A stretch of DNA of 42,900 nt from an uncultured Desulfobacteraceae bacterium (GCA_964440555.1 CAYTSY010000008.1:1-42900), one strand, 5' to 3'. Shown: positions 27,352 through 40,955, counted from the first letter of the stretch. Notes: generated from the sequence alone by a model not told the origin. Program-made: numbers and translations.

Positions 27352-27371
27352 TCACGGTTTGACCCATAGGC

Positions 27372-27632
27372 TTACATGCCGGGTTTGTATCTTTCGGCGG
27401 TATCTTTGAGTTGGGCAATCTCCAGACCGAGACTTATGCATTGTTTGCCGTCCATGCAAAGGGCTGCATCTTTTTCTTCAAGGTAATGCTTGATCGTATT
27501 CTTATCTTTTTTAAGATATACCGCCCACGCTTTCTGTTCTTTGTCGTATTCTACTGTCACATCAATACCGCATTCGCCTATGTCCGGATAAACAGATTGA
27601 ATCTTTTTACAAAGCGCTTCTTTTTCGTACAT
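27372..27632 (-). CDS. Small hypothetical protein (86 aa, four Cys)
   Basis: Clean ORF with GGGGGAAACC upstream of the ATG. No recognisable family. Confidence 0.45.
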   Translation of the reverse strand: MYEKEALCKKIQSVYPDIGECGIDVTVEYDKEQKAWAVYLKKDKNTIKHYLEEKDAALCMDGKQCISLGLEIAQLKDTAERYKPGM

Positions 27633-27674
27633 GGTTTCCCCCTTTCTTGGAAAAACGGTTTATTTGAGTTTAAG

Positions 27675-28046
27675 TTATATGAGCATTTCAACTTCAATGT
27701 CTAATCCCTTGGCAATTATTTTTAATGAATCAATTGTGGGGTTTCTTTTACCGTTCTCTATCTGAGAAAGATAGGCTGCACTGATGCCAACTTTTTTAGC
27801 CAGCTCATTCATTTTGATTTTCTTATATTCTCTCCATGCACGGATAGGGCTGATTCCGTCAAGAACGGCAAAAGTGACTTCACCTGGAACTGTTATTTCT
27901 TTGCCTTCCTGAATGGCTTTTACATTTCTTTCTATATCTTGTATATCCTCAGCATCTTCCAGCGCTTCCTGAATTTTTTTATATTCACTGAAAGGGATAA
28001 CAGCCCATTCGGGTTTTCCATTTTTTTCTATAATTTGAACACTCAT
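27675..28046 (-). CDS. Type II antitoxin, XRE-family HTH with N-terminal Phd-like extension
   Basis: C-terminal HTH MNELAKKVGISAAYLSQIENGKRNPTIDSL. There is a 4-nt overlap with the upstream RelE-like gene. Confidence 0.75.
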   Translation of the reverse strand: MSVQIIEKNGKPEWAVIPFSEYKKIQEALEDAEDIQDIERNVKAIQEGKEITVPGEVTFAVLDGISPIRAWREYKKIKMNELAKKVGISAAYLSQIENGKRNPTIDSLKIIAKGLDIEVEMLI

Positions 28047-28297
28047 TTGTATACCTCCCCTCGAGTTTTTAAGGTGATAACGTGGATTAAAAGTTCATCG
28101 TCGTTAACGGTGTATACGATTCTCCAATCACCGACTCGAAGTCTATAGCCCGGATGGCCCGTTAATTTTTTTACATTACGCATCCCATTGGGATTATGCG
28201 CTAATTCTTGTATTTTCTTTCCGATGGTTAATGCAACAGTGCGCGGCATTCTTCGAAGCGTCTTGTCCGCATCTTTGCTGAAAGTTATTTTGTACAT
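28043..28297 (-). CDS. Type II toxin, RelE/ParE family
   Basis: MYKITFSKDADKTLRRMP...KLTGHPGYRLRVGDWRIVYTVNDDELLIHVITLKTRGEVY is a classic RelE/StbE pattern. The gene order is toxin first (HigBA-like). Confidence 0.8.
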   Translation of the reverse strand: MYKITFSKDADKTLRRMPRTVALTIGKKIQELAHNPNGMRNVKKLTGHPGYRLRVGDWRIVYTVNDDELLIHVITLKTRGEVYK

Positions 28298-28381
28298 GTT
28301 GTATATGTTAACAAAAAGAAACAAAAAAGCAAGATTAAAGTTAGCTGGTAGTTATTTTATCACACTGCAGAAATGAGGATG

Positions 28382-29011
28382 TCAGCCCATCGGATAAACA
28401 GCAAATATCGTGCAGCTCCAGATGGAATGGGAGATGATCACCGCAGCCAGGCTTTTCGTCCGCCAGTACAGGGCGCCCCAAAAGGCGCCGGCTACGGCAG
28501 CGGCGCCGATTAGCATGAAATTGAACGACCAGATATGAACTCCGGCATAGACCGCGGTTGACAGGAGCCACCCCTGCCATCCGCCGAAGCGGTTGATCAG
28601 GTTTTTTTGAAGATATCCCCGCCAGTATATTTCTTCGCAGGGCCCGGTGATGAAGAAAAGCAGAAGCGAGATGACCCACACGGGCGTTCCGGCGCCTTTA
28701 TCGTAAATTCCTCCGATCTGCTGGTCGGCAAAGGGCAGGAGGAACCCGGAAACTTTTTTCCCCATCCAGAAAATTCCATATAGCACTGCCGCCGATGCCA
28801 CACCCAGAAGAATGGCCCTGCCGTTAAAGGCCAGGGAATCTTTTTGATCCTTTTGCAGCAAAAAAGACAACGCCGCCAAAGTCGTTGCCGATGCGGAAAT
28901 TTTAATCCAAAAGGTGGCCCATGTCAGATAAAACGTGACAAACCACAATACGGCCGCCAGCAAGACCGTCCCGATCACTGGAGCCGGCAACTTCTTGCTT
29001 TGATTCAACAC
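28382..29011 (-). CDS. CPBP-family intramembrane glutamic endopeptidase (CAAX protease-like)
   Basis: Contains PCEEIYWRGY, AVYAGVHIW and IISHSIWS motifs. The GTG at 29011 overlaps the upstream stop (GTGTTGA). The ORF-track start at 29164 would overlap the prenyltransferase by 160 nt. Confidence 0.75.
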   Translation of the reverse strand: MLNQSKKLPAPVIGTVLLAAVLWFVTFYLTWATFWIKISASATTLAALSFLLQKDQKDSLAFNGRAILLGVASAAVLYGIFWMGKKVSGFLLPFADQQIGGIYDKGAGTPVWVISLLLFFITGPCEEIYWRGYLQKNLINRFGGWQGWLLSTAVYAGVHIWSFNFMLIGAAAVAGAFWGALYWRTKSLAAVIISHSIWSCTIFAVYPMG

Positions 29012-30018
29012 ACGCCCTCCAGGATCAGGGAAAGAACCAGCAATACACCGAATGCCGTATCCAATTGCGCGGTCCGGGCGTCGGCATCGCTGGGCATCTG
29101 CCTGATCATCAGGCGAAACAAACGCAGTGCCAGGGGAATCGAAAGCAGTACTATAAGCGACCATAAATGCAGAGGACCGAAAAAAGACATCGCCACGACG
29201 CCCAGATACGCCATGAGGATCAGAATGTAGTATAATGTCAGACCTTTTCGTTGCCCCAACAGAATGGCCAGCGTTGAAATCCCCTTGCTGTGATCGTGGG
29301 CGATATCGCGGATATTATTGGCCAGCAGAACCAGCGCAACCAGAATTCCGAAGGGCAGGGATATCCAAAAGGCGTTCATGCTTAACGTCTGTCTCTGAAC
29401 AAAATAGGCGCCCTCCACCATCAATGGGCCCCACATGAGAAATACGGACACCTCCCCCAGGGCAAGATATTTGTATTTCAGCGGGGGCGCCGTGTACATC
29501 AGGCTGGCAAACACACCGATCAGGCAAATGGCCAGAAGCTCCCATCCGCGGGTCGCCACCAGGAAGAGACCGATTAAAGCTGAGATCCCATATAGTAAAA
29601 TTACCGCTATGCCGATTTGCTTTTCGGTCAATTTCCCTTCCACCAATGGATGCGGGCGATATTGGGCGGTGGAGGCGTCGCAGGTATCCACCCCGTTTTT
29701 AACGTCATAGTAATCATTGACCAGGTTGGTGGCGGCATGCACGGCAACAGCCCCAAGCAGGGTGATGGAATAATAAATCCATGAAAAATTGCCGTCCAAT
29801 GACGCCAGGACGCTGCCCACGCTTACGGAAATTGCGCTCATCGTAAAAGACCACGGGCGGCTGGCCAGAAACCAGTTTCGATAAACGTTCACTCTAAAAT
29901 AATTCCTTCCTGCATAAACAAATGCTTTACCAGTTTTTAAAATAACAGATGATAAAAACCGGTAACTCCCATATCGGAGTTTGGGAGGGTTGTCAACGGC
30001 GCCTTTTCCCCTCAGCAA
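29005..30018 (-). CDS. UbiA-superfamily prenyltransferase, MenA-like (1,4-dihydroxy-2-naphthoate prenyltransferase family)
   Basis: Contains NLVNDYYDVKNGVD and NNIRDIAHD aspartate-rich motifs and about 8 TM segments. An alternative GTG start at 29892 is likely. Confidence 0.75.
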   Translation of the reverse strand: MLRGKGAVDNPPKLRYGSYRFLSSVILKTGKAFVYAGRNYFRVNVYRNWFLASRPWSFTMSAISVSVGSVLASLDGNFSWIYYSITLLGAVAVHAATNLVNDYYDVKNGVDTCDASTAQYRPHPLVEGKLTEKQIGIAVILLYGISALIGLFLVATRGWELLAICLIGVFASLMYTAPPLKYKYLALGEVSVFLMWGPLMVEGAYFVQRQTLSMNAFWISLPFGILVALVLLANNIRDIAHDHSKGISTLAILLGQRKGLTLYYILILMAYLGVVAMSFFGPLHLWSLIVLLSIPLALRLFRLMIRQMPSDADARTAQLDTAFGVLLVLSLILEGVC

Positions 30019-30036
30019 CCCCCGGTCAACGTTTTT

Positions 30037-30687
30037 CTAGTCGGGAGCGCCGGCCTTTTCCCAATCTTCGATTTCAACGTGAGACTCAACTTCTTCCCAG
30101 CCGGTAATCATGGCTTTGATATGGGCGCAGATCGTATGGCCGGTTGTGGTCATATAAACATGAACGGCCACAAAGGATAAAATGAGAAAGGCCCCTGCCA
30201 TATGAATTGCTGCGATCATCCCCAGGGAAAGAAATTGGGAAGCACCGTCCGGCCAGGAATTGTACGACCAGTATAAAAAACCTGTTGTCATCTGTATGGG
30301 CAGCATAACGGCTGCCAGGGACAGATAGGTCAGGCGTTGAAGCGGGTTGTGCTTGGCATCTTTGCGTTTTGGGGCAGGATGGGGCCGGCCCAGGAAGATG
30401 CCATGGGCATAATAAAGAATCACGGCGAGCATTTTTTTGGTTGTCGGGATGTAACTGCGCCACTCCCCGGTGGTAAAAATCCAGAACACGAAAAAGCCGA
30501 AAGCGATGAGCCAGGTGATGCCCAAAAAATTATGGACGGCAACCGCAGATTCAAATCCGAAAAGCGTATAGACACCGTGAATTTCAAGTCCTGTGACCAG
30601 GAGCAGGACAATCAGAATCATTTGAAGCCAATGCCAGGCTCTTTCGTAGCGCGTGTAGAGATAAATACGGGTCATATGGTCGGCCAT
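30037..30687 (-). CDS. Membrane di-heme cytochrome b (Ni/Fe-hydrogenase/FdnI-type cytochrome b family)
   Basis: 4-5 TM helices with conserved His (ERAWHWLQ, AVHNFLG, AAIHMAGAF, AVHVYMT). It starts 3 nt after the stop of the octaheme cytochrome gene. Confidence 0.7.
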   Translation of the reverse strand: MADHMTRIYLYTRYERAWHWLQMILIVLLLVTGLEIHGVYTLFGFESAVAVHNFLGITWLIAFGFFVFWIFTTGEWRSYIPTTKKMLAVILYYAHGIFLGRPHPAPKRKDAKHNPLQRLTYLSLAAVMLPIQMTTGFLYWSYNSWPDGASQFLSLGMIAAIHMAGAFLILSFVAVHVYMTTTGHTICAHIKAMITGWEEVESHVEIEDWEKAGAPD

Positions 30688-30690
30688 GCG

Positions 30691-32316
30691 TCAATTCTCC
30701 TTTCTGCGAAAGCTTGCGATCACCCGTCCCAATCCATGGACAAACACGCCGAAAAACGAACCGGCAACCATGGCCCACCCGAGGATATCAATCGGTTTGA
30801 AACGGTCCCGGCCGGGCATATAGAAACCGGCGAGGTCAGCCATGCGGCCATTGGAATCAACGTGGCATTCCACGCATTTAACGACATTGTTTTTGGGCGC
30901 AACCATATGGGTGATGGGATAGACGTAGGTGCTGTCCACGAAATCGAATTTTCCGGAAAACGGCAACCCCATGAAATCCATCCCCTTTTTAAGCGCGCCG
31001 TCCCAGTCCAGAGTAGTCCAATATCCGTCGGGGCCGGACAAAAGCGGCGCCAGAAGGGTATTGTTGATTTTGTCATAAGGCTGTTTTCCCCGGTGAACCT
31101 TAAAGGGGAAAATACGGGCGTTTTTGTCATTTTGATCGCCTAAAGGCCGGCTGACGCGAACCGGTTGGGACGGGTCGATCACATCTTTTACCGTGAGGGT
31201 CACGATGGAGCCATTGAACCAGAAATATTCCGGCATAACATTTTTTTCCCATTTCATCTGCCCCTTGATGGAAAGGTAGTCGTCCTTACCCAACTCGCCC
31301 TTGACCGTGAAGGGTTTCCCGGCCTTTGTTTTGCCGGCTTTGGACCAGTCCCAGCTCATTTTGGTAGGATTGACCCGCGCAAATGTCGGGATATGGCAGG
31401 ATTGGCATGCCACTTTGTCCGTGTGGTCGTTGGGTTTATCTCCTGATTCGTGAGGAAAGGCCGTGTGACAGGATTCACAAGTGATTTTAGGCGTCAGGTC
31501 GTCTTCGACCAGACTTTTACGGTCTTTTGCCGCCGGTATGGTATAGATTCTCCCGGCTATGCGGTGTTGTTTGGTGGTATGGCATCGGGTGCAGGCAAAG
31601 TCCTGGCCGTCAGCGCCCATGTGAACATCCAGCGTCTTGTTGGGATCGGCCATGGAGGAGTCCAGGTCCCCATGTTTGACGCCGTCGCCGCCGCCGCCGT
31701 AAAAATGGCATGAACCGCAATTTTTACGGCCCGGCCGGGCCACCTGGGAAACGGCATTCTGAAGGTCCTTTTGAATTTCCGCAGCGATTTCCTTCTCCGC
31801 CGGATCATCTGATTCGGAGAAATACCCATAATCCTCAAAGGCTTCTGAAAAATTGAATTCCTTTTGGCCATGACAGACCAGACAGTTGACCAGGTCGGCT
31901 TTGCCGTTCCAGCCGGTATGGCAGGCCTGGCATTGTTTGTCATTCATGTAATTGGTCGAGATGCAGAAATTGTTGACCGAATCCCCGGCTTTTCCGGTTT
32001 TCTTCCCGTTGATTTCGGTGGGCGCAAGCCATGTCCAGTGGATAGTTTGCGTAAACTGCCGATGAGCCTCGGAGTGACAGGAGATGCAGGCGCCGGTGAT
32101 CTGTGATCCGGATTCAAAGGCCTGTTGGAGGGCTTTATGCTTGGTGTGGTCCGTCGTGGACCAATGCGTGCCGTCCTTGGTGGCCTGTCTGGCCATGGCG
32201 CGTCCAACGGGCCGGCGCTCATCCTGGGCGTTGAGATCAGAAATCGCCGTCGATAAGGATAAGACCAGACCGATCAGCACCGGAAATCCACATAACCGGA
32301 AAATATTTCGTTTCAT
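30691..32316 (-). CDS. Octaheme c-type cytochrome, tetrathionate-reductase (Otr) family-like, with C-terminal TM anchor
   Basis: Eight CxxCH motifs: CISCH, CQACH, CLVCH, CGSCH, CTRCH, CESCH, CQSCH, CVECH. Signal peptide from the ATG at 32316 (MKRNIFRLCGFPVLIGLVLSLS). Otr-like N-terminus STTDHTKHKAL...CISCH...HWTW. C-terminal hydrophobic helix ILGWAMVAGSFFGVFVHGLG. Confidence 0.85.
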   Translation of the reverse strand: MKRNIFRLCGFPVLIGLVLSLSTAISDLNAQDERRPVGRAMARQATKDGTHWSTTDHTKHKALQQAFESGSQITGACISCHSEAHRQFTQTIHWTWLAPTEINGKKTGKAGDSVNNFCISTNYMNDKQCQACHTGWNGKADLVNCLVCHGQKEFNFSEAFEDYGYFSESDDPAEKEIAAEIQKDLQNAVSQVARPGRKNCGSCHFYGGGGDGVKHGDLDSSMADPNKTLDVHMGADGQDFACTRCHTTKQHRIAGRIYTIPAAKDRKSLVEDDLTPKITCESCHTAFPHESGDKPNDHTDKVACQSCHIPTFARVNPTKMSWDWSKAGKTKAGKPFTVKGELGKDDYLSIKGQMKWEKNVMPEYFWFNGSIVTLTVKDVIDPSQPVRVSRPLGDQNDKNARIFPFKVHRGKQPYDKINNTLLAPLLSGPDGYWTTLDWDGALKKGMDFMGLPFSGKFDFVDSTYVYPITHMVAPKNNVVKCVECHVDSNGRMADLAGFYMPGRDRFKPIDILGWAMVAGSFFGVFVHGLGRVIASFRRKEN

Positions 32317-32336
32317 GTCGTTTCTCCGCTTATTCC

Positions 32337-32359
32337 CCCTCCCCCTCGATGGGGGAGGG
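32337..32359 (-). other. Perfect 9-bp G/C hairpin between the small secreted protein gene and the octaheme cytochrome gene
   Basis: On the + strand: CCCTCCCCC-tcgat-GGGGGAGGG. It sits 17 nt after the upstream stop and about 20 nt before the octaheme ATG, with no T tract. Confidence 0.45.
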
Positions 32360-32375
32360 CCGGGGGGTGCGGGAT

Positions 32376-32723
32376 TTATTTGCATTTTGCCGGCGCAGGC
32401 GAATCCGCGGCGTGGTCATGCAGGTACGTATAGATGTCCAACAACTCCTGTGCAGAGAGTTTGTCCCATTCCGCCTTGCATCCGAATTCCTCAAAGTCTT
32501 TGCCGGCAAAGACTTTTTTCCATTGCGCCTGTGTTTTGCTGTCCGGGCCGATTGCCGGTTTTGCGGAATCTGTGCCGCCCCGTTCATGACACAGTTTGTA
32601 AATGTTGCGATAGGCGTATTTACCTTTTCTTCCATCCCCCTTGTCTTCCGACAACGCCGAACCGATGCAGGTCAATACGAATACAACCGATAAAATGCCG
32701 ATCCACCATTTTTTGTTCATCAT
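32376..32723 (-). CDS. Small secreted protein, cytochrome-c-like layout but with a lone CH (YKLCH) instead of CxxCH
   Basis: Signal peptide MMNKKWWIGILSVVFVLTCIGSALS. The mature region has GKYAYRNIYKLCHERGG...P..KTQAQWKKVF...LSAQELLDIYTYLHDHAADSPAPAKC. Confidence 0.55.
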   Translation of the reverse strand: MMNKKWWIGILSVVFVLTCIGSALSEDKGDGRKGKYAYRNIYKLCHERGGTDSAKPAIGPDSKTQAQWKKVFAGKDFEEFGCKAEWDKLSAQELLDIYTYLHDHAADSPAPAKCK

Positions 32724-32764
32724 GTCTCCTTTTGGCTTAAGCTGAGTTTGAGATAATACCTTTA

Positions 32765-33079
32765 TTAAAAAACCAGATAACGGTCAACCATGTTTAACAT
32801 TTCCGCGTTTCTCCCCTGGGTGGCAAAATCCTTGAATCCGACGCCGGGGACCTCCTGTTCACGGCCATGAAGACCGTTGGCGCGAAAACTGACATCGCAA
32901 ATGGAGAGCTTCGCCTTTCCCACCAGTTGTTTAAATTCCTGCGCCATGGTCAGAAGGACCCCTTTTCCGGTGAAAAAAATACGCACCTGTATGGCTTTTT
33001 CATGAGCTGCGGCGGTCAGTTTGACCACATCGGCCAGATGCCGGTCGGAGCTGACGAGGATGCCGAGGGTTTTTTCCAT
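32765..33079 (-). CDS. DsrE/DsrF-like family protein
   Basis: 104 aa. LGILVSSD...LTAAAHEKAIQVRIFFTGKGV...LSICDVSFRANGL...DRYLVF has the length and pattern of the DsrE/F fold, with one candidate active Cys. Confidence 0.55.
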   Translation of the reverse strand: MEKTLGILVSSDRHLADVVKLTAAAHEKAIQVRIFFTGKGVLLTMAQEFKQLVGKAKLSICDVSFRANGLHGREQEVPGVGFKDFATQGRNAEMLNMVDRYLVF

Positions 33080-33093
33080 GGATGACTCCTTTA

Positions 33094-33615
33094 TCAGAGT
33101 GTTGAGTTTTGGGTTTTGGGTTTTGAGTTTTGGGTCATGGCCCGGGTCACTTTTTCAAAAAGAGTTTCCCGGACGTTTTTATCCGTCGCATACTTGAGGA
33201 TCAGCAGATAGATCCCTTCCCGGATGAGATCCGACTCATCTTTATTTCTGTTGCATTCAACACGCTTGAGTACTCCCAGCAATTCAGAGACTTCCGGGCT
33301 GATCCGGGTCCTGACCTCGATGGACAGGGGGCCCATGGCTTCGAAGGGGATTTCTTCGCTTCCTTCCCGGCAGGCGTCGTCGTGAGATGCATACTGAACG
33401 ATGAGGCGGTAGCACTCCATGGCCTTGTCCGCAAATCGCTGCTTTAAAAACTCTTCGCCCAGAGACGTGATGATTTTCCTGGCCCAGAAGGCTTCATCGC
33501 TGTCTGAGCCGTATTTTTCGAGTACTTTTGTAGCTGATTCAAGCGCACGGTCATAGCACGCGCAACGTTCCAGGACCATGGCCCTGACAAGATCCTTATC
33601 CATCTGTTCCTCCAT
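33094..33615 (-). CDS. Conserved hypothetical protein; C-terminal part resembles a ribbon-helix-helix (CopG-like) domain
   Basis: 173 aa with five Cys (RCAC, ECY, DACR, VEC). The C-terminal LSIEVRTRISPEVSELLGVLKRVE...DLIREGIYLLILKY fits a beta-alpha-alpha pattern. The last 13 codons translate the heptamer repeat. Confidence 0.5.
   Translation of the reverse strand: MEEQMDKDLVRAMVLERCACYDRALESATKVLEKYGSDSDEAFWARKIITSLGEEFLKQRFADKAMECYRLIVQYASHDDACREGSEEIPFEAMGPLSIEVRTRISPEVSELLGVLKRVECNRNKDESDLIREGIYLLILKYATDKNVRETLFEKVTRAMTQNSKPKTQNSTL
33099..33136. repeat. Heptamer array GTGTTGA GTTTTGG GTTTTGG GTTTTGA GTTTTGG GTC
   Basis: Read directly. It uses the same units as 12685-12716 and overlaps the 3' end of CDS 33094-33615. 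Confidence 0.85.
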
Positions 33616-33636
33616 ATCCCCGCAGCGGTTAATTTT

Positions 33637-33810
33637 TTACCACCAGCAAATTACTTTATCGTGGGAAAAGATCTCATCCACCAGGGCGGCCCAATCCACC
33701 TCTTTTTCATAAAGGGCCTTTACGGACGATTCGCCGGATTTTGAGACCAACCCGCAAAGTTTTTCCACTGTTTCATCGGGTTCGGACCGTAAAATATGAA
33801 GCACTTTCAT
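33637..33810 (-). CDS. Small conserved hypothetical protein (DsrH/TusB-like size)
   Basis: The ATG at 33810 is preceded by GAGGGAA. MKVLHILRSEPDETVEKL... ends in ICWW. The family call is tentative. Confidence 0.45.
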   Translation of the reverse strand: MKVLHILRSEPDETVEKLCGLVSKSGESSVKALYEKEVDWAALVDEIFSHDKVICWW

Positions 33811-33818
33811 TTGTTCCC

Positions 33819-34106
33819 TCAAAAGGGGATGACGACATCCGCCTCGTTTATTTTTTCAGCAATCTCGGCCATGGTCGCATACTGAAAGCCGTAGTTTTCA
33901 ACGTTGACCGGGTCGTTTGAAAATCGCTTTCCTTCCATTTCATCCAAAAAATCCATGTTGTCCTGATAGGCTTCATCCATGTTGACGATCGGGTGATGAA
34001 GGACGACCATGGTCACCTCAGTGTCTTCAAGCAACAACCCCAGGCTGGTTCTTAAACCCTCGTATTGCTGTTCGACGTCTTTGATTAGAACGATTGCTTT
34101 TTTCAT
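33819..34106 (-). CDS. DsrE-like fold protein lacking Cys (DsrF/H-like)
   Basis: 95 aa. MKKAIVLIKD...VTMVVLHHPIV...ADVVIPF has a DsrEFH-like length and beta-alpha pattern, with no cysteine. Confidence 0.5.
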   Translation of the reverse strand: MKKAIVLIKDVEQQYEGLRTSLGLLLEDTEVTMVVLHHPIVNMDEAYQDNMDFLDEMEGKRFSNDPVNVENYGFQYATMAEIAEKINEADVVIPF

Positions 34107-34124
34107 CTGTTGTAGCCTTTGGTT

Positions 34125-34370
34125 TCAGCCTTTTTTAATATAATAACGGGTAAATCCCGCTGAATCATCCACCATTCCCAAAAACGCGTTGCCTCCCTTG
34201 GCGCCGAAGTCCGGGATATCGTTTTTCGAACCCGGGTCCGTTCCCAGAATTTCCAGAATTTGTCCTGTCTTCATGTCCTTGAGCATTTTTTTTGTTTTAA
34301 GCAACGGCATGGGACAGGTTAATCCCCGGGCGTCGAGCAATTTGTCTGCCTGAATCGAATTGACATCCAT
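34125..34370 (-). CDS. tusA: TusA-family sulfurtransferase (SirA-like)
   Basis: 81 aa with the canonical LDARGLTCPMPLLKTKKML motif (the CPxP active-site Cys). Confidence 0.85.
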   Translation of the reverse strand: MDVNSIQADKLLDARGLTCPMPLLKTKKMLKDMKTGQILEILGTDPGSKNDIPDFGAKGGNAFLGMVDDSAGFTRYYIKKG

Positions 34371-34392
34371 TTTATACTCATCCTTTCGATGA

Positions 34393-35589
34393 TTAAAAAA
34401 TTACAAATTTTTCCGTTTTTTCATTCCAGATCGCGATAAACACCCATGCCAGCAGAAATATGAAAAATAGCGGAAGCGCGACAGACCATGAAAACACGCT
34501 GATCAGAGAAACGCCTTTGCCCAGTTTTTCATCGAGGTTCAAAACCGTCAACAACCGGGCCGCCGATGAATTGGCAAGGGCAAAGGCCACCAGCGTAGAA
34601 ACCAGTTTAAGGTGTCCTTCACCGATCCGCCACAGCGTGCTGGAGCCACATCCGCCGGCCAGGAGCATGCCGAATCCGAAAATCAGTCCTCCGGTCATGC
34701 TTCCGAGCCAGAACGGATGGTAGATCCCCATGGTTTCCGGCTGAATATAGCTCCACTTGATGACTGCCGAACCTGCTCCGTAAATCATCAGGCTCATGGC
34801 CACGACCCGCACCATTTCCGCGTCTCCGGTCATAAACGGGCAGCGGAAGGCCCTTACAAAGCAAAAGCGTGACCGGTGCATGGTCAGGCCGATCAAAAAA
34901 CCGAAGAACAACAGTCCGCCGATCTGGGTTTTATCCATCCATGAATAGAGATAGAAAATGGCCAGGGCTGCAGCAAAAACCGATCCGCCGACCCAGGGTT
35001 GAACCTTTGCCCAGTTTATGCGTGCCTCACGGGCCGTTTCCCGGGGAGGATCAACCGTTATTTTGGGTGGGAATCGATCCATTTCCCACAACAAGTATCG
35101 AAGACCGAGCCATGCGCCCGCGCCAAGGCCCAGCATCATGGCATATCCTCCCATGGAAAATACGCCGATAGCGGTGTAAAACCCGCCGACATTGCAGCCG
35201 CCGGCCAGGGCCGCCCCCGTCCCCATGAAAATGCCGCCGGCAATGCCTTTGGCATATTCAATCGGGGGCGACTTCCGGACTTTAAATTGTCTCCCCATCA
35301 ACGCGGAAGCCAGGGCGCCGAGCAACAAACCGGTATTGGAAACCGACATGGTATGAATCCACGGCGCATCAGGCTGTTTTTCAATGATTCCTGCAAAGTA
35401 AAACATCCAGTCTCCCCAGTTGCGATATCCCCCGACGATTCCCCAGGGACTTTGCCATAGAAAAAGGAGCAACGCCAATACCGCGATAAAGATGCCCGCC
35501 AGCCATGTGGGCCAGTCCCTTTCAAAAACAGCAATGTAATTTTTTCTGGCCTCGTCTTTTACGGTTGCCCAAAAACTTTCCGCTTCCAC
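34393..35589 (-). CDS. YeeE/YedE-family sulfur-compound (thiosulfate) transporter
   Basis: Polytopic membrane protein with the three conserved Cys-containing re-entrant motifs (LAGGCNVGGF, RSRFCFVRAF, LAGGCGSSTLW). The GTG at 35589 is preceded by AAGGAAAAG and is preferred. The ORF-track TTG at 35652 translates the repeat. Confidence 0.85.
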   Translation of the reverse strand: MEAESFWATVKDEARKNYIAVFERDWPTWLAGIFIAVLALLLFLWQSPWGIVGGYRNWGDWMFYFAGIIEKQPDAPWIHTMSVSNTGLLLGALASALMGRQFKVRKSPPIEYAKGIAGGIFMGTGAALAGGCNVGGFYTAIGVFSMGGYAMMLGLGAGAWLGLRYLLWEMDRFPPKITVDPPRETAREARINWAKVQPWVGGSVFAAALAIFYLYSWMDKTQIGGLLFFGFLIGLTMHRSRFCFVRAFRCPFMTGDAEMVRVVAMSLMIYGAGSAVIKWSYIQPETMGIYHPFWLGSMTGGLIFGFGMLLAGGCGSSTLWRIGEGHLKLVSTLVAFALANSSAARLLTVLNLDEKLGKGVSLISVFSWSVALPLFFIFLLAWVFIAIWNEKTEKFVIF

Positions 35590-35602
35590 AGTCTTTTCCT
35601 TT

Positions 35603-35665
35603 AGCTTAAAGTTACAAGCTACAAGCTGAAAGCCAAAAGCTTGTATTTTCAACTTTCAACTTTCT
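35603..35665. repeat. Nine-unit heptamer array AGCTTAA AGTTACA AGCTACA AGCTGAA AGCCAAA AGCTTGT ATTTTCA ACTTTCA ACTTTCT
   Basis: Read directly. It contains the 7-bp stem ACAAGCT (35621-35627) / AGCTTGT (35638-35644). It lies between the porin stop and the yeeE start, inside the operon. Confidence 0.85.
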
Positions 35666-35668
35666 TCA

Positions 35669-37405
35669 TCAATACCTGAATGTCGCGGAAATATACCCGT
35701 CCCAGACATCGTCGACAATGGGATTGAGCCCGTCAAAAGACGTTGCGTCCGAAATTTTGACCGGTTGTCCCAGAGGGTTGCCGCTGCCGGTATAGGCATA
35801 GTCGTAGACCCTCCCACCCAGGGTTATGAAAAAGACGTTGCTGAAAACCGGTTGAATGTAGTAGGCTTCATAAACGCTGCCCCGAACCGCCAGTTTGCTT
35901 CCCACCAGCGAATCTTCCGCTCCGGTGAAATTGAACCAGTACTTGGAACCCCAGTTATACTCAAGACCGAGTCTGGCCGCGTACGGCATGGGGAACAGGG
36001 CGCCCGCGTAAATGCCGTAACCGTCTCTTTCCTTTAACTGGCCGTTGGAGCTCAACAGACCGACGCCCATGATTTCATAAAATGGGTTTCTGGAAATCTG
36101 GGAGGGATCCGTACGGGTATAGGAAGCAGCGAAGAACAGATCAATATCCGCCAGCCGCTCGGCAAGATTGGTGGTTAAAAGCAGAGACGCGGCGTCCCAG
36201 TCGCCGATGTTGGTCATAGGTTCCATACGGGTGATGAATGCACCGCTGTTTTGCTCAAAGTAGTATTCGTTGATGCCGTCCCCGGTCATGTCCATCCGGG
36301 AGACGATAAACGGCATGACGGTTAAGCCCGTAAATCCATCGGTGATGTCCCAGGCATGGGCATAATTAAACACCGCGCTGGTCGTATCGTTGTCAAAGAG
36401 CGTGGCGATGAAGCCGAACATATGGACATCATCGACCTCGGGCTGGGTGGAACTTAAAGAGGAACTGTTGCCCCAGTCACCCTCAAATCCTACGCCGTAG
36501 CAGAGTTTAAAATCTGCGCCCGGAATGCCGGTAACCTCTTCCAATCCAAAGTTCAGTGAAGCCCCGTCAAATTGCCAGTTGATAATCGTGCCCAGCGGAG
36601 AACCGCCTTCAAGGCTGTAGCTTGCGTATTCCAGCGGCGGCCCATCGGTTGACGGCCGTCTCCCCAGACTGAAGTTGACGGGAACAGACCCCATTTCGTC
36701 CTTGTAATTGAAATATGCCCGTTCCAGGCGAAGGGTGTCTCCATGGGGGAGGCTTGATGAGTTGCCGTCAAAGGTTACATCGCCTAAACTCCCCTGATTG
36801 AATTTAACGCCGGTGCTGTCCCCGAAAACTTTATACGCGGCAAGCCGTCCGCCGAAGCTCAATTGATCGTTATATTTGGAGTTGAAGTTCAAGCGGAATT
36901 TATTGGTGTAAATAATGTCGTTGTCCACATCGGTTTTCATGGGCGGGGGAACCATGCCCGCACCGGCCATGGCCGCCATGCCACCCTGAATCTGGGCAAG
37001 GGTCGCGCCGTTGAATCCTCCAGCCGGCGGGGGGGAAGGGTTAAAAGGCGTAAAAAAACCGCCGATGAGCGCAGACGGCGCACTGACGATATCCTGGTAA
37101 TGAATGCTGTCCGCCCTGGATCGGAGTTCAACGCCCAGCGCCAGTTTGTCGGTGGCAGTGTGAATTTCCGCTTTGTTGAGTCTTTCGTCTATTTCAGCGA
37201 TGTCGGACTCTTTTTTGGCGTCGGCCGTTTCCATGGTTTCGATTTTTTGTTGCAGGGTTGTAAGATTGTCCTGCATGGTTTTGAGTTGCTCTTTGAGGGC
37301 GTTTACATCATCAGCAGCGGCAACGGTTTGTGAAAACAACAAAAGCGAAAAACATATCGCCGCCGGCCATACGCCCCGGATCATTTTACCGGTTTTTTTC
37401 ATCAT
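35669..37405 (-). CDS. Outer-membrane beta-barrel protein with N-terminal coiled coil (DUF3373-like putative porin)
   Basis: ATG-ATG at 37405 is preceded by AAAGGAGGAG. Signal peptide ...LLLFSQTVAAADD, then a heptad-rich segment LKEQLKTMQDNLTTLQQKIETME. The long beta-rich region has alternating aromatic/Gly residues and a terminal ...SATFRY. Confidence 0.65.
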   Translation of the reverse strand: MMKKTGKMIRGVWPAAICFSLLLFSQTVAAADDVNALKEQLKTMQDNLTTLQQKIETMETADAKKESDIAEIDERLNKAEIHTATDKLALGVELRSRADSIHYQDIVSAPSALIGGFFTPFNPSPPPAGGFNGATLAQIQGGMAAMAGAGMVPPPMKTDVDNDIIYTNKFRLNFNSKYNDQLSFGGRLAAYKVFGDSTGVKFNQGSLGDVTFDGNSSSLPHGDTLRLERAYFNYKDEMGSVPVNFSLGRRPSTDGPPLEYASYSLEGGSPLGTIINWQFDGASLNFGLEEVTGIPGADFKLCYGVGFEGDWGNSSSLSSTQPEVDDVHMFGFIATLFDNDTTSAVFNYAHAWDITDGFTGLTVMPFIVSRMDMTGDGINEYYFEQNSGAFITRMEPMTNIGDWDAASLLLTTNLAERLADIDLFFAASYTRTDPSQISRNPFYEIMGVGLLSSNGQLKERDGYGIYAGALFPMPYAARLGLEYNWGSKYWFNFTGAEDSLVGSKLAVRGSVYEAYYIQPVFSNVFFITLGGRVYDYAYTGSGNPLGQPVKISDATSFDGLNPIVDDVWDGYISATFRY

Positions 37406-37454
37406 CTGCTCCTCCTTTGAGTATGATTTTTTTATTTGTTTGCGCATATGATAA

Positions 37455-37469
37455 TCAATAATTGTGCCA
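37455..37469 (-). promoter_or_regulatory. Candidate sigma54 (-24/-12) promoter for the porin-yeeE-tusA... operon
   Basis: The minus strand reads TGGCACAATTATTGA. This has exact consensus spacing (TGGCAC-N5-TTGC) with TTGA in place of TTGC. It lies about 50 nt upstream of the ATG at 37405. Confidence 0.5.
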
Positions 37470-37575
37470 TGAGATCCAGCGCAATTGAAAATCTGATATA
37501 ACCATCTGAAAATGAAATAAAAATATGTGCAACAGGTTTGCAGAAAACGCTCTTGAAAAATTTGCCGGTCGTGGT

Positions 37576-37627
37576 AATGTTAACAAATGTTAATTATCAA
37601 CATTAACATGTTAACCGTGGCATTAAC
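37576..37627. promoter_or_regulatory. Cluster of GTTAAC/GTTAAT/ATTAAC dyads (candidate enhancer/UAS sites)
   Basis: The region reads AATGTTAACAAATGTTAATTATCAACATTAACATGTTAACCGTGGCATTAAC. It contains a perfect 8-bp inverted repeat ATGTTAAT-N7-ATTAACAT (37587-37609), plus ATGTTAAC at 37577 and 37608. It is centred about 135 bp upstream of the -24/-12 element and abuts the regulator's RBS. Confidence 0.4.
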
Positions 37628-37638
37628 AGGAGGTGCCC

Positions 37639-39042
37639 ATGGAAATCGCCGCTTATTGGAAGACCATAGCGGATACGCTGCAGGACGGGCTGTTGGTGAT
37701 TGACCCGGAAGGAAACATCCGGGCGGCCAATCAGGCAGCTTCGCGGATCACCGGTTATTCAAAAGAGGAACTCGTCGGCAAGTCCTGCCGCATTCTCAAT
37801 TGCACCGGCTGCAACATCATCGGCAAAGGCCCGGGTGAAAACTGGTGCGGTCTTTTTTCAAAAGGGGAGGTAAGGGAAAAAAAGTGCCTGATCACCAACC
37901 TGGATCGCCGGGCTGTTCATATCCTCAAATCGGCCAAGGTGTTGCGCGATGATGACGGCCGGATAGTCGGCGCCGTGGAAAATCTTACCGATATCACCGA
38001 TAAAGTCAGACAACAGCAGGAGTTGACCCGCCTGCGGCAGACCTTTCACCTGGATGACGGCTATTGCGGGATATTAGGCAAATCCCCGGTCATGCAAAAC
38101 CTGTTTGCGCTCATCGAAAACGTTTCCCAATCCGATGCACCGGTCATCATTTCGGGTCAGAGCGGAACCGGAAAAGAATTGGCGGCCCGCGCTATACATG
38201 AAACCGGTCCCCGTAAGAAGAAACCCTTCATCAAGGTCAATTGCGCAGCCTTGAACGAAAATGTCCTGGAAAGTGAACTCTTCGGCCATGTCCGGGGAGC
38301 ATATACCGGTGCTGACAGGACGCGGATCGGCAGGTTTGAAGCGGCTCACGAAGGGACTATTTTTTTAGATGAAATCGGAGACTTGCCGTTATCCATCCAG
38401 GTTAAGCTGCTGCGTGTTTTAGAAGAAAAGAAGATCGAGCGCGTGGGGGATCACCGACCGATCTCCGTGGACGTCAGAATCATCACCGCCACACATAAAA
38501 ACCTGGAGTCTCTGATCGAAAAACAACTGTTTCGGGAAGATCTGTTTTTTCGGATCAATGTATTTCCCCTGCATTGTCCTTCCCTGGTTGATCGCATCGA
38601 AGATATCCCCATCATTGCACAACACTTTATCCACCAAAGCGCCGCAAAAACAGGGAAAAAGATCCTCGGTCTGACGCCGGAAGCCATGGAAAAACTGATG
38701 GCCTATCCCTGGCCCGGCAATATCCGCGAACTTAGAAATACCATTGAGTATGCTTTTGTCCTCTGTCCCAGCGGAGGCATTGATGTGCGGCATTTGCCGC
38801 CCAACGTGGCAAGAGGCCAAATACTTGACCGTAAAGGACCAAGCGGCGTGCAACGTTTTGGCGATGCGCAGAGGGATCGTATCGTTGATGCGCTCAACCG
38901 GGCCGGCCAAAGCCGGACCGATGCCGCCCGGCTCCTGGGTATAAGCCGTGTAACATTATGGAAGCAAATGAAAAAATATAACATCACCCCTGAGGCAGAC
39001 AGCCAGGGAATCCAAAAGCCAACGCTGGTCGATGAATCGTGA
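37639..39042 (+). CDS. Sigma54-dependent transcriptional activator with N-terminal Cys-rich PAS domain
   Basis: PAS region (LLVIDPEGNIRAANQAASRITGYSKEELVGKSC). AAA+ domain with Walker A GQSGTGKE, ESELFGHVRGAYTGA (GAFTGA-type loop) and LDEIGD. C-terminal Fis-type HTH AARLLGISRVTLWKQMKKY. The ATG at 37639 is preceded by AGGAGG. Confidence 0.9.
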   Translation: MEIAAYWKTIADTLQDGLLVIDPEGNIRAANQAASRITGYSKEELVGKSCRILNCTGCNIIGKGPGENWCGLFSKGEVREKKCLITNLDRRAVHILKSAKVLRDDDGRIVGAVENLTDITDKVRQQQELTRLRQTFHLDDGYCGILGKSPVMQNLFALIENVSQSDAPVIISGQSGTGKELAARAIHETGPRKKKPFIKVNCAALNENVLESELFGHVRGAYTGADRTRIGRFEAAHEGTIFLDEIGDLPLSIQVKLLRVLEEKKIERVGDHRPISVDVRIITATHKNLESLIEKQLFREDLFFRINVFPLHCPSLVDRIEDIPIIAQHFIHQSAAKTGKKILGLTPEAMEKLMAYPWPGNIRELRNTIEYAFVLCPSGGIDVRHLPPNVARGQILDRKGPSGVQRFGDAQRDRIVDALNRAGQSRTDAARLLGISRVTLWKQMKKYNITPEADSQGIQKPTLVDES

Positions 39043-39053
39043 ATCGTGGCGGG
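39031..39053. repeat. Short heptamer array GATGAAT CGTGAAT CGTGGCG
   Basis: Uses the same unit type as 20294-20320 and spans the stop codon of the sigma54 activator. Confidence 0.7.
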
Positions 39054-39103
39054 AAAATGCCAAAAGTATATTTTTATTATGTATGGTGGGGAGACAATGA
39101 AAC

Positions 39104-39736
39104 ATGAACAGGTCTGAGGTACAAATGGTGGGAGAGCGGTTTCGATATGCCGACCAACTGCCGTCGCCGCTTTGGGACGACCTTCAGGCACGTCCTGCGC
39201 AAGAGGCGGCAATTGCTTCAGGAGCGGTGCTGCAAAGCGGGGAGTTCAGGATTCCTCTGGTGGGAGTGACCTATCTGGTGGATCCAAAATCGCGACGGAT
39301 CACGCGGGAGGATGAAAAGGAACACCGGGTCAGCTTCCAGACGGGCGTGGTTTTGCTGACCGCCCTGGCTAAATCCGTGGGGGTACCCCCCAGCGGGCGG
39401 ATGGTGACGCCGCAGGAACTGAAGGGCGGCTCTCTTTTCTTTACCGGCGCGCACAGTCTTGCCGTCAAACCCCTTGCAAAACGGTTTGGCTATGATCCCG
39501 GCGCGTTGATTGCTTCGGCGCAAAAAATCGGCGGCAAAACCATTTCCGGGGCCGATTGCGCCGTCTGTATTCCCGGGTTGCCCTTGCTGCCGCTTTATGT
39601 GTTCCTGTGGCAGGCGGACGACGAGTTCGAGGCCCGCGCCGTTATCGGCATTGACGACCGGGCATTGTTCCATTTGGACTTGGCCGGCGTATTTGCTTTA
39701 ACCAATATTATGGCAAGCCGTTTGATCGGGCAATAA
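39104..39736 (+). CDS. DUF3786-like protein
   Basis: The pattern ...YLVDP...VLLTALA...ELKGGSLFF...PLAKRFG...GADCAVCIPGLPLLPLYVFLWQADDEFEARAVIGIDD... matches my recollection of DUF3786. Not verified. Confidence 0.5.
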   Translation: MNRSEVQMVGERFRYADQLPSPLWDDLQARPAQEAAIASGAVLQSGEFRIPLVGVTYLVDPKSRRITREDEKEHRVSFQTGVVLLTALAKSVGVPPSGRMVTPQELKGGSLFFTGAHSLAVKPLAKRFGYDPGALIASAQKIGGKTISGADCAVCIPGLPLLPLYVFLWQADDEFEARAVIGIDDRALFHLDLAGVFALTNIMASRLIGQ

Positions 39737-39860
39737 ACGATAAAAGTGCGGCAAAAGGTTTACATCGCATGAAAAATGTGGCAAATATTTTCCAATCAGC
39801 CTTTGTCCCCGTTAGTCATTCGAATGAATTGAGAAAGCATAAACATGAGGTGTGGCGCAA

Positions 39861-40955
39861 ATGAGTAAAATAAAGATCGCTGTTGCCGGAGTGGGTAACT
39901 GTCCAAGCGCATTGATACAGGGAATTTATTACTACAGGGACAAAAGGCCGGAGGATGCCGTCGGCCTCATGCACTGGCAGATAGGCGGTTACACGCCGGG
40001 TGATATCGAAGTGGTTGCGGCCTTTGACATCGACAGACGGAAAGTGGGAGAAGATGTCAACAAAGCAATTTTTTCCGAACCGAATTGTACAACCATTTTT
40101 TACCCGGATTTGCCGGAGTCCGGCGTCAGGGTCCGTATGGGTAAAATCCTGGATGGTTTTTCAGAGCACATGAAAGACTACGAGGGGAAATACACGTTTA
40201 TTTTGTCCGATGAACCTGAACCCGAATCAGGTGCGGTAGTGAAAACGTTAAAGGATACCGGAGCGGAAATCCTGCTCAATTATCTGCCGGTCGGGTCGGA
40301 AGATGCCACACGATTTTACGCCCAATGCGCCCTTGACGCCGGTGTTGGGTTTATTAATAATATCCCGGTGTTTATCGCCAGCGATCAAAGCTGGGCCGGA
40401 CGTTTCAAAGAAAAAAATATTCCCCTGATCGGAGATGATATCAAGTCCCAGCTTGGAGCCACCATCACCCATCGGACCCTGACCGATCTCTTTAAAAAGC
40501 GGGGGGTGAAACTGGAGCGCACCTATCAATTGAATACCGGTGGAAACACGGATTTCCTCAATATGCTCAACCAGCATCGCCTGATATCCAAAAAAATATC
40601 GAAGACCGAGGCCGTCCAGGCGGTGACGCAAAAGCGGCTGGACAATGAAAATATTCATATCGGGCCCTCTGACTATGTCCCCTGGCAAAAAGACAATAAA
40701 GTCTGCTTTATCCGGATGGAGGGAAAATTGTTCGGGGATGTGCCCATGGAACTGGAACTTCGTCTTTCGGTGGAAGATTCTCCCAATTCCGCCGGCGTTG
40801 CCATAGACAGCATCCGGTGTGCGAAACTGGCGATTGAAAACGGCGAGGGTGGCGCGCTTATCGAGCCATCCGCCTATTTTTGTAAACACCCCCCCCGGCA
40901 ATTCACCGACGATGAGGCCTATCACATGATCGAGGCGTACATTTCCAAATACTAA
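39861..40955 (+). CDS. Inositol-3-phosphate synthase (short archaeal/bacterial type)
   Basis: IKIAVAGVGNCPSALIQG (NAD-binding N-terminus), IGDDIKSQLGATI, QLNTGGNTDFLNM and SPNSAGVAID motifs. About 365 aa. Confidence 0.85.
   Translation: MSKIKIAVAGVGNCPSALIQGIYYYRDKRPEDAVGLMHWQIGGYTPGDIEVVAAFDIDRRKVGEDVNKAIFSEPNCTTIFYPDLPESGVRVRMGKILDGFSEHMKDYEGKYTFILSDEPEPESGAVVKTLKDTGAEILLNYLPVGSEDATRFYAQCALDAGVGFINNIPVFIASDQSWAGRFKEKNIPLIGDDIKSQLGATITHRTLTDLFKKRGVKLERTYQLNTGGNTDFLNMLNQHRLISKKISKTEAVQAVTQKRLDNENIHIGPSDYVPWQKDNKVCFIRMEGKLFGDVPMELELRLSVEDSPNSAGVAIDSIRCAKLAIENGEGGALIEPSAYFCKHPPRQFTDDEAYHMIEAYISKY

Follow-up and report, generated by a model that had tools for sequence, protein, structure and literature searches.

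We analyzed a 42,900-nucleotide (nt) stretch of DNA from an uncultured Desulfobacteraceae bacterium (GCA_964440555.1 CAYTSY010000008.1:1-42900; hereafter the window), in which a locus at positions 28382–39042 places sulfur-trafficking genes next to genes for an octaheme cytochrome c and a cytochrome b, divergent from a gene for a PAS/sigma-54 activator. An earlier note on this DNA had described a twelve-gene locus here. The twelve consecutive open reading frames (ORFs) were all present on the minus strand, running from 37405 down to 28382 exactly where that note had placed them. However, the conserved unit comprises only ten genes, from the DUF3373 porin through the di-heme cytochrome b (37405 to 30037, minus strand), in the order DUF3373, YedE-type transporter, TusA, p95, p61, p173, p104, p115, Otr and cytochrome b. 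The last two, a MenA-like and a CPBP gene, had homologs in none of the 23 genome loci and none of the 80 metagenome loci. Hidden Markov model searches confirmed most of the families that the note had suggested checking, namely DUF3373, Sulf_transp, TusA, octaheme, Ni_hydr_CYTB, UbiA/MenA and Rce1-like CPBP, whereas four small proteins (p104, p95, p61 and p173) had no above-threshold family match. The features of the conserved unit and its control region are as follows.

35669..37405, minus strand: DUF3373 outer-membrane beta-barrel (Pfam 394 bits, E=1e-117, residues 174–592)
34393..35589, minus strand: YedE-type (YeeE/YedE family) inner-membrane sulfur transporter (Pfam Sulf_transp 165 bits)
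34125..34370, minus strand: TusA-family sulfur carrier (Pfam TusA 79 bits, cutoff 28.6)
33819..34106, minus strand: p95, a small cysteine-less protein of putative DsrE/F fold, probable DsrF-like subunit of DsrEFH type II (weak Pfam match, position, PMC13293266, PMC13047784)
33637..33810, minus strand: p61 (57 amino acids from the ATG), probable DsrH-like subunit (position and literature)
33094..33603, minus strand: p173 (169 amino acids in the NCBI call), an optional third conserved hypothetical protein of YTD clusters (homolog conservation)
32765..33079, minus strand: p104, DsrE-like subunit, DsrE type II (Pfam DsrE E=0.0012)
32376..32720, minus strand: p115, secreted small cytochrome-c-derived protein of 115 amino acids (homolog alignment)
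30691..32316, minus strand: Otr-family octaheme cytochrome c, C-terminally anchored (TIGR04315 520.6 bits, cutoff 375, model positions 1–440)
30037..30687, minus strand: di-heme cytochrome b of the FdnI/PhsC/Ni_hydr_CYTB family (Pfam Ni_hydr_CYTB 88.7 bits)
37455..37469, minus strand: predicted sigma-54-type -24/-12 promoter, TGGCACaattaTTGA, about 50 nt before ATG 37405
37575..37625, no strand assigned: TTAACA/TGTTAA repeat cluster, putative activator sites (upstream activating sequences), about 105–170 nt upstream of the -24/-12 element
37639..39042, plus strand: sigma-54 enhancer-binding activator (Pfam Sigma54_activat 237 bits, AAA_lid_14, PAS_9/PAS_4, HTH_8)

The gaps between the ten genes measured 3–79 nt, and a terminator scan listed no site within them; the other listed sites all lay within coding sequence. 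Base composition was uniform over the locus and so gave no sign of recent insertion, no mobile-element signs were noted around it, and an Rfam scan of 27000–40000 matched no RNA family.

Related loci are numbered L001 onward. With YeeE as the query, a search that covered a single genome for each GTDB species gave 21 loci, which were then compared with all of the window's proteins by tblastn; the genome loci number 23 in all. A metagenome scan with the Otr alignment gave 509 confirmed matches, 80 of which were kept, and the metagenome counts below refer to those 80. The nearest relatives in the YeeE-anchored genome scan were Desulfobacteraceae metagenome-assembled genomes. The ten-gene order together with the divergent activator was found in 10 other Desulfobacterales genomes at 56–80% identity (L001–L005, L009, L015, L019, L020 and L023), L023 being the cultured Desulfosarcina widdelii (AP021875.1), which was reached via its p104 homolog. 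The order kept was that of the activator divergent from DUF3373–YeeE–TusA–p95–p61–(p173)–p104–p115–(rhodanese)–Otr–cytochrome b, where L002–L004, L020 and L023 have an insert between p115 and Otr whose product is secreted and contains three rhodanese domains. The full order, including the porin–YeeE–TusA set, was also present on three shorter metagenome contigs (L054, L061 and L067). Given these genome and metagenome loci, synteny extends beyond the core of the YTD cluster (yeeE-tusA-dsrEFH type II), contrary to the refuting condition set in the earlier note. As that note had proposed, one sigma-54 activator stands over a physically joined set made up of the cytoplasmic YedE–TusA–DsrE-type relay, an octaheme/cytochrome b module of the periplasm and a barrel of the outer membrane, and the combination recurs beyond this contig.

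Other loci depart from this order. The Otr–cytochrome b slot of L010 encodes a TorD-like chaperone, a PhsA-like molybdoenzyme that is Tat-exported and whose best model is thiosulfate reductase PhsA (514 bits, below cutoff), and two further subunits, one 4Fe-4S and one NrfD. Two Desulfobulbaceae loci carry only the activator divergent from DUF3373–YeeE–p115, with or without TusA, and Desulfonatronovibrio-type loci and Desulfospira joergensenii carry only YeeE–TusA–p95–p61–p173–p104. In the metagenomes, a cytochrome b gene follows otr in 65 of the 71 loci with enough downstream sequence. Among the 28 Otr loci with at least 8 kb upstream, the activator (at least 50% identity) was present in 16, p115 in 15 and the triple rhodanese, between p115 and Otr, in 16, and DsrF/H/E-like genes stood between activator and p115 in 6. 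Partnered Otr proteins were 56–66% identical to that of the window, whereas homologs at or below about 57% (L077 and L082–L096) retained only the cytochrome b. The commonest unit is therefore the activator divergent from p115–triple rhodanese–Otr–cytochrome b, extended in some lineages by DsrEFH-II or by the whole of the YTD/porin set; the window is a rarer fusion of the p115–Otr–cytochrome b unit with YTD and porin genes, in which the rhodanese has been lost. Besides the commonest unit, the arrangements seen include the activator with DsrF/H/E-like–p115–triple rhodanese–Otr–cytochrome b, DUF3373–p115–Otr–cytochrome b, the activator with DUF3373–YeeE–p115, and an Otr module convergent with YTD (L046). 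Persistence of the partners through at least five gene orders is the strongest argument for a functional link between the modules.

Some neighbors of the related loci are recorded here for their own sake. Just downstream of the module in L009 (14944-16779) and L010 (17893-19527) lies a fusion of FmdE, a treble-clef zinc finger and MoCF_biosynth; the first of these loci has Otr and the second the PhsA-like enzyme. In L016 (2204-9829), two very large secreted proteins (1362 and 1081 amino acids) are encoded directly upstream of a YeeE–TusA–DsrEFH-II–p115 cluster, and the activator of that locus is diverged (37%) and convergent.

The DUF3373 protein has a signal peptide and a heptad-rich N-terminal coiled coil, as read from the sequence, and its start at 37405 is preceded by AAAGGAGGAG, a strong Shine-Dalgarno sequence. 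The family corresponds to TCDB 1.B.62, a putative 18-strand porin (PMC4827864), and the only condition for which the Dissulfuribacter thermophilus proteome tables list a DUF3373 protein is thiosulfate disproportionation (PMC13490349). For the transporter, alignment of orthologs pointed to GTG 35589 as the likely start, although the ORF reaches 35652. It is homologous to Spirochaeta thermophila YeeE, the thiosulfate importer of solved structure 6LEO (E=2e-17), the order of the two halves being exchanged; the RxxFCF, GGCGS and GGCNVG motifs align, and cysteines C153, C264 and C335, whose counterparts are essential in S. thermophila YeeE, were invariant in 26 sequences. The protein was colinear with the NCBIfam YedE/FdhT model at 126 bits, below cutoff, and scored below the equivalog cutoffs for both TsuA and selenium YedE. 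In the TusA protein, Cys19 (CPMP, i.e. the CPxP cysteine) was invariant in 27 sequences, and relatives in the Protein Data Bank (PDB) include 3LVJ TusA. The family-level assignments of YeeE and TusA made earlier thus hold. Separately, L024 (7819-8064) encodes an 81-amino-acid protein with a TusA-like N-terminal pattern (…GVISPLCLLKCK…) and no family match, located between activator and p115 in a YeeE-less arrangement.

In the window, as in 17 or more related loci, tusA is followed by the genes for p95, p61 and p104; p173 is interposed in about half of these loci. The p95 gene adjoins tusA in every locus seen; its product matched Pfam DsrE/DsrF below threshold (E=0.012), which was the top recurrent family, in 5 of 16 members. 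The p61 protein was conserved in 14 loci with a conserved KVICWW ending, and it gave no family match. For p104, the Pfam DsrE match was likewise sub-threshold (19.4 bits against a cutoff of 22.7); 626 homologs were found, many with PF02635 on record and some named 'DsrE family protein'. The 'DsrE-like' labels given previously to p95 and p104 are thus backed by weak DsrE/DsrF matches, but not by above-threshold Pfam support. The single cysteine of p104, Cys61, was invariant within KLSxCDVSFR in 14 aligned sequences and would be the counterpart of the published DsrE Cys67. Profile searches of the PDB with the p104 and p95 alignments did not reach DsrEFH 2HY5 and gave no meaningful match, a difficulty that the authors of the DsrEFH type II work also report, and hhalign detected no relationship between p104 and p95 (probability 4.6%). 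By position, p95, p61 and p104 are probably the DsrF-like, H-like and E-like members of a DsrEFH type II trio. In published models, the DsrE-like protein and a pair of conserved hypothetical proteins of YTD clusters form a DsrEFH-like heterotrimer (PMC13293266; PMC13047784). Because DsrEFH type II acts in vitro as a sulfur transferase via the active cysteine of DsrE (PMC13293266; Plum-Jensen et al. 2026; see also PMC13047784), the previous statement that YTD clusters have no demonstrated biochemistry is outdated.

p173 is the 'chp3' of YTD clusters, mentioned as optional in PMC12998232. It was present in the window and in L001–L005, L019, L020, L006–L008, L013, L014, L017 and L022, and absent from L009, L010, L015, L016 and L023. 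None of its 55 homologs is functionally annotated, and one JGI entry is labeled TPR repeat protein. C14 and C16 (CxC) and C64 were invariant, and C78 was kept in at least 90%. The AlphaFold2 monomer model (predicted local distance difference test, pLDDT, 82) consists of helices without a strand, forming a TPR-like four-helix N-domain and a helical C-domain; Foldseek returned weak TPR matches only (E>0.1), and 24 of 32 members gave weak TPR_2 matches. Matches to RHH-type Pfam families were faint and numbered four among the 32 members (RHH_3 twice, RHH_1 and Antitox_RHH; E 0.04–0.6). Of the former description as a Cys-rich RHH-like protein, the cysteine richness therefore stands, whereas the RHH label is not established.

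The heme motif of p115 is degenerate, reading Y-K-L-C-H in the window and Y-K-x-C-[H/M/N/F/Y/E] in the window's clade in place of CxxCH. Across 47 homologs, the first cysteine of the motif is replaced by tyrosine in 81% and the histidine is retained in 28%, while C45, C82 and C114 were invariant in the 47 sequences. Distant homologs (37–47% identity; L009, L010, L012, L015, L016, L018 and L021) carry CxxCH, so that p115, judging from these alignments, is descended from cytochrome c but should not be classed as one. Its AlphaFold2 model (pLDDT 79) gave weak Foldseek matches, mostly to class I cytochromes c (E~1). The protein previously called secreted and cytochrome-like is indeed secreted and cytochrome-c-derived, yet it lacks CxxCH. 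Database names of its homologs include 'cytochrome c family protein' and 'periplasmic monoheme cytochrome c'; the decayed motif makes the latter unsafe in the window's clade, and wrong for most of it. In all arrangements seen, p115 adjoins YeeE and/or Otr: it lies beside YeeE in loci without Otr, and beside Otr in those without YeeE.

The octaheme assignment was borne out by the TIGR04315 score and by eight CxxCH motifs read directly from the protein, all invariant in 89 homologs. The start at 32316 (MKRNIF...) is an assigned one, as the ORF extends to 32385, and a signal peptide follows. Alignment with Shewanella Otr 1SP3 (E=2.4e-97, residues 85–510) matched all eight heme motifs. Cys141 (NNFC) aligns with the active-site Cys64 of 1SP3 and was kept in 88% of the 89 homologs, and Lys132 (GK[AG]G) was invariant, lying one position off the heme-ligating Lys56 of 1SP3 in an ungapped alignment. 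The eight heme motifs are common to the window's Otr and the Shewanella oneidensis enzyme, but the latter is soluble and proposed to be fed by CymA, whereas the window's protein ends in a transmembrane helix, has a di-heme cytochrome b of its own and is encoded among sulfur-trafficking genes. This C-terminal helix (30691-30790, minus strand) is conserved, and its histidine (H550, ORF numbering), kept in 99% of the 89 homologs, could be in contact with, or act as ligand to, a heme in the partner cytochrome b. The cytochrome b gene starts 3 nt past the otr stop; the best NCBIfam model for its product was PhsC (99.5 bits, below cutoff), and H19, H52, H162 and H176, the expected heme ligands, were invariant in 76 sequences. 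Cytochrome b is presumed to be the menaquinol-interacting partner of Otr. As an aside, L028 (9932-15109) carries two tandem Otr–cytochrome b pairs after one p115–rhodanese unit; their proteins are 62%/69% and 55%/70% identical to those of the window.

The divergent gene encodes the sigma-54 enhancer-binding regulator expected from the earlier note, with an N-terminal Cys-rich PAS domain, an AAA+ sigma-54 interaction domain and a Fis-type helix-turn-helix (HTH_8), and without a receiver domain or transmembrane segment. ATG 37639 is preceded by GGAGGTG; the ORF list has GTG 37633. Five cysteines in the PAS domain, spaced C-x4-C-x2-C-x12-C-x12-C, were kept in at least 96% of 45 activator orthologs, suggesting that the domain may be an Fe-S or thiol-based sensor and that it probably responds to a cytoplasmic sulfur or redox signal. 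FisR-type sigma-54 activators sense sulfide or sulfane sulfur via cysteines, and NreB-type proteins are Fe-S PAS sensors. The activator described here resembles FisR in being a sigma-54 enhancer-binding protein over sulfur-metabolism genes with conserved sensor-domain cysteines, but its sensor is a PAS domain with a five-Cys pattern, and the likeness is drawn as an analogy only.

The predicted promoter, TGGCAC-N5-TTGA, was found where it had been reported, ahead of the first gene, and is one of three sites with at most one mismatch to the consensus in the 42.9 kb. The activator-to-porin intergenic regions of 13 related loci were compared. TGGCA[CT]-N5-[CT]TGC occurred at the matching relative position in 12 of the 13, and a TTAACA-N4-5-TTAACATAA-like direct repeat with inverted TGTTAA copies occupied the equivalent place, about 100 nt upstream of the promoter, in all 13. 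The whole window holds seven GTTAACA matches, three of which lie within 37578-37615. The TTAACA repeats are likely candidate binding sites for the activator, and because promoter and repeats are conserved across related loci, the comparison provides good evidence for the predicted sigma-54 promoter with activator sites.

Each module has a described counterpart. YTD clusters (Umezawa 2020, as cited; PMC13293266; PMC13047784) share with the window a YedE-type transporter, TusA with the CPxP cysteine, a one-Cys DsrE-like protein, adjacent small conserved hypothetical proteins and a Desulfobacterota host. The order differs, however, being TusA–F-like–H-like–(p173)–E-like here and TusA–DsrE–Chp–Chp as published, and the window adds the Cys-rich p173, the porin upstream, p115–Otr–cytochrome b downstream and the sigma-54 activator. 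In the sulfur disproportionator Thermosulfurimonas dismutans, an Otr and cytochrome b pair (TDIS_1882/1883) has been proposed as a membrane-linked tetrathionate reductase (PMC4911364). It likewise consists of a periplasmic Otr beside a multi-helix cytochrome b, but no linkage to a porin, YTD, p115, rhodanese or activator is reported in PMC4911364. For Desulfurivibrio dismutans, a porin/periplasmic rhodanese/YeeE grouping has been noted, together with a disproportionation model that assigns Psr to the periplasm and Dsr to the cytoplasm, with menaquinone between them (PMC12142623). This model, and the PsrABC/PhsABC systems with Sud-type rhodanese, resemble the present loci in the porin, secreted rhodanese, YeeE/YedE, TusA, cytoplasmic Dsr and quinol-linked periplasmic reductase, and the PhsA-like complex of L010 sits in the exact Otr–cytochrome b slot. 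They differ in that a multiheme cytochrome and a cytochrome b here stand in place of a molybdoenzyme and NrfD, and in that all parts lie in one putative operon instead of scattered. The literature searched (full text) contained no description of the YTD and Otr–cytochrome b fusion, of a shared sigma-54 activator with Cys-rich PAS and TTAACA sites, or of the p115 family and its decayed heme motif. The claim that the locus had not been characterized as a unit is accordingly upheld for the composite, but not for its modules (YTD/DsrEFH-II, Otr with cytochrome b, porin/rhodanese/YeeE), each of which is known separately.

We propose, with a probability of roughly 0.6, that the locus encodes an inducible, envelope-spanning system for a sulfur-cycle intermediate. 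The genes from 37405 to 30037 (minus strand) would form one sigma-54-dependent operon, activated from the TTAACA repeats by the divergent activator. The DUF3373 porin would let an anionic intermediate of inorganic sulfur, namely polysulfide, thiosulfate or tetrathionate, into the periplasm, where p115 would handle sulfane or S-S-bonded sulfur, with the secreted triple rhodanese in most relatives. Membrane-anchored Otr, wired to the menaquinone pool via cytochrome b, would perform the periplasmic redox step, most likely a menaquinol-driven reduction, while the YedE-type transporter, TusA and the DsrF/H/E-like trio would carry sulfur into the cytoplasm and pass it to DsrC/DsrAB. One regulated unit would in this way serve both a periplasmic and a cytoplasmic branch in the dissimilatory use of such an intermediate, by disproportionation or respiration. 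We favor the reductive direction because oxidation of thiosulfate to tetrathionate (+198 mV, vs about -70 mV for menaquinone) cannot reduce menaquinone (PMC9751629, PMC8528874) and because the family that replaces Otr in L010 is reductive; the PhsA-like substitution also supports equivalence of Otr–cytochrome b with Psr. YTD proteins are more abundant during thiosulfate disproportionation (PMC9751629). Observed here are the gene identities, the conservation of residues that are functional in characterized relatives, the synteny, and the conserved promoter and repeats; co-transcription, substrate, direction of electron flow, the roles of p115 and p173 and the activator's signal are all points that we infer. 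The earlier description of a 'complete pathway' goes further than this, as substrate and electron-flow direction are not readable from sequence.

Several observations count against the proposal. The 42,900-bp contig carries no dsr, apr or sat genes, and the DsrF/H assignment of p95 and p61 comes with a sub-threshold Pfam match or none. The -12 dinucleotide of the window's promoter is GA, whereas the consensus has GC, and transcription as one operon is predicted from sequence. YTD stands alone in many genomes, e.g. that of Desulfospira joergensenii; the full porin–YTD–Otr fusion is a minority arrangement, which the 28 Otr-anchored metagenome loci with 8 kb or more upstream all lack; and the window is without the periplasmic rhodanese that most relatives carry. 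Finally, the substrate of Otr is unsettled: in a ttr deletion strain of Shewanella sp. ANA-3, further deletion of otr made no difference to the turnover of tetrathionate and trithionate, the best substrates in vitro are nitrite and hydroxylamine, and the authors of that study propose sulfite (PMC12949373). In marine Acidobacteriota, otr showed a 36-fold induction with tetrathionate (PMC8528874).

The same set of genes could also work in the opposite direction, Otr–cytochrome b oxidizing periplasmic sulfide or polysulfide and delivering electrons to menaquinone. The locus would then be a sulfur-oxidation module, in which sulfur would pass via p115/rhodanese, YedE, TusA and DsrEFH-II to DsrC and be oxidized by reductive-type DsrAB in reverse. 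All of the synteny evidence fits either direction, DsrEFH-II has been argued to mark oxidation capacity (PMC13293266), and by established redox potentials sulfide and S0 are reducing enough for menaquinone. Yet L010 substitutes an enzyme of a family characterized as reductases, the thiosulfate–tetrathionate couple cannot drive menaquinone reduction, and assays of Otr-family enzymes have to date been of reductase activity (PMC12949373), which leads us to regard an oxidative role as unlikely, though a real rival.

The results from Shewanella bear on a different reading, that Otr is a periplasmic six-electron sulfite reductase (MccA/SirA-like) or a nitrite/hydroxylamine reductase that respires or detoxifies its substrate, the sulfur relay being merely co-regulated, with no hand-over between the two. 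Besides the in vitro preference for nitrite and hydroxylamine, ANA-3 accumulated slightly more sulfite when otr was deleted, and the eight hemes can be superimposed on the hemes of MccA (PMC12949373). The consistent association with secreted rhodanese, p115 and DsrEFH-II-like genes and the replacement of Otr by a PhsA-like enzyme in one genome argue instead for sulfane or thiosulfate-type chemistry, not N-oxides, and no nitrate/nitrite genes lay beside Otr in the loci whose neighboring ORFs were inspected; we consider this reading distinctly improbable. Very improbable in our judgment is that YTD and Otr–cytochrome b are unrelated operons placed end to end, or that the system serves selenium metabolism (YedE/YedF-type). 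YTD does occur alone, as does Otr–cytochrome b in the Otr subclade at or below 55% identity, but the modules remain associated through at least five gene orders with one conserved activator and promoter, and p115 adjoins YeeE or Otr when the other is missing. As for selenium, the transporter's best NCBIfam model is the selenium YedE/FdhT model and TusA also matches YedF; both scores are far below cutoff (126 vs 350; 43 vs 79), and the window ORFs scanned included no selenium-specific family such as selD. Given these scores and the sulfur context, a selenium role was rejected.

The proposal of an inducible, envelope-spanning sulfur system matters because YTD/DsrEFH-II is one of the two best candidate markers for sulfur disproportionation or oxidation by bacteria with a 'sulfate-reducer' gene set (PMC12998232, PMC13293266), processes whose mechanism is still debated. 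The physiological role of Otr-type octahemes has likewise been debated since 2004 and was questioned again in 2026 (PMC12949373). The conserved, co-regulated YTD–Otr link, which takes in an outer-membrane pore, a secreted rhodanese and an uncharacterized cytochrome-derived protein, offers a testable hypothesis in cultured Desulfosarcina widdelii (AP021875.1). A broader idea, which we hold as doubtful, casts the activator-controlled p115–(rhodanese)–Otr–cytochrome b unit as the periplasmic, quinol-linked branch that has been missing from sulfur-intermediate metabolism in many Desulfobacterales, with protein-bound or free sulfane/S-S sulfur as the long-disputed natural substrate of Otr. If so, p115 would be a heme-less former cytochrome c acting as a three-cysteine periplasmic carrier between Otr/rhodanese and the YedE importer, and the fusion in the window would amount to a module for disproportionation that is complete within a single operon.

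Two further genes follow the conserved unit on the same strand.

29005..29892, minus strand: MenA-type UbiA prenyltransferase, not in the conserved module (TIGR00751 menA 122 bits, cutoff 102)
28382..29011, minus strand: CPBP/Rce1-like intramembrane protease, not in the conserved module (Pfam Rce1-like 65 bits)

MenA family models align from about residue 45 of the ORF, and a GTG at about 29892 has GGAAGGA upstream, which makes it a likelier start for the MenA-like gene than TTG 30018. This start leaves a gap of about 144 nt after cytochrome b, an AT-rich spacer containing a weak 5–6-bp hairpin and a short T-run. The earlier junction range, from a 7-nt overlap to about 80 nt, is correct at its upper bound only if TTG 30018 is used. 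The CPBP start (GTG 29011 or TTG 29008) overlaps the MenA stop at 29005 by 4–7 nt, and the two genes are probably translationally coupled. No homolog of either was found in the 103 related loci (23 genome and 80 metagenome), where the genes after cytochrome b vary everywhere. With this absence and the long spacer, the pair was rejected as pathway members and should not be drawn into the pathway; they are local neighbors, the MenA-like gene probably serving housekeeping menaquinone synthesis.

Directly downstream of the CPBP gene, a type II toxin-antitoxin pair occupies 27675-28324 (minus strand), in which a ParE-family toxin gene (28043-28324) overlaps a Phd/RelB-like plus HTH_3 antitoxin gene (27675-28046). 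On the plus strand after the activator, 39104-40955 encodes a DUF3786 protein and an inositol-3-phosphate synthase (TIGR03450-like, 432 bits, below cutoff); a gene for the latter also adjoins the activator in L001 and L019. The remaining genes of the contig are housekeeping ones (MutS, amidase, ABC transporter, secretion ATPase and HtrA), and a lone tRNA-Arg(TCT) gene lies close to the contig start (814-890, minus strand).

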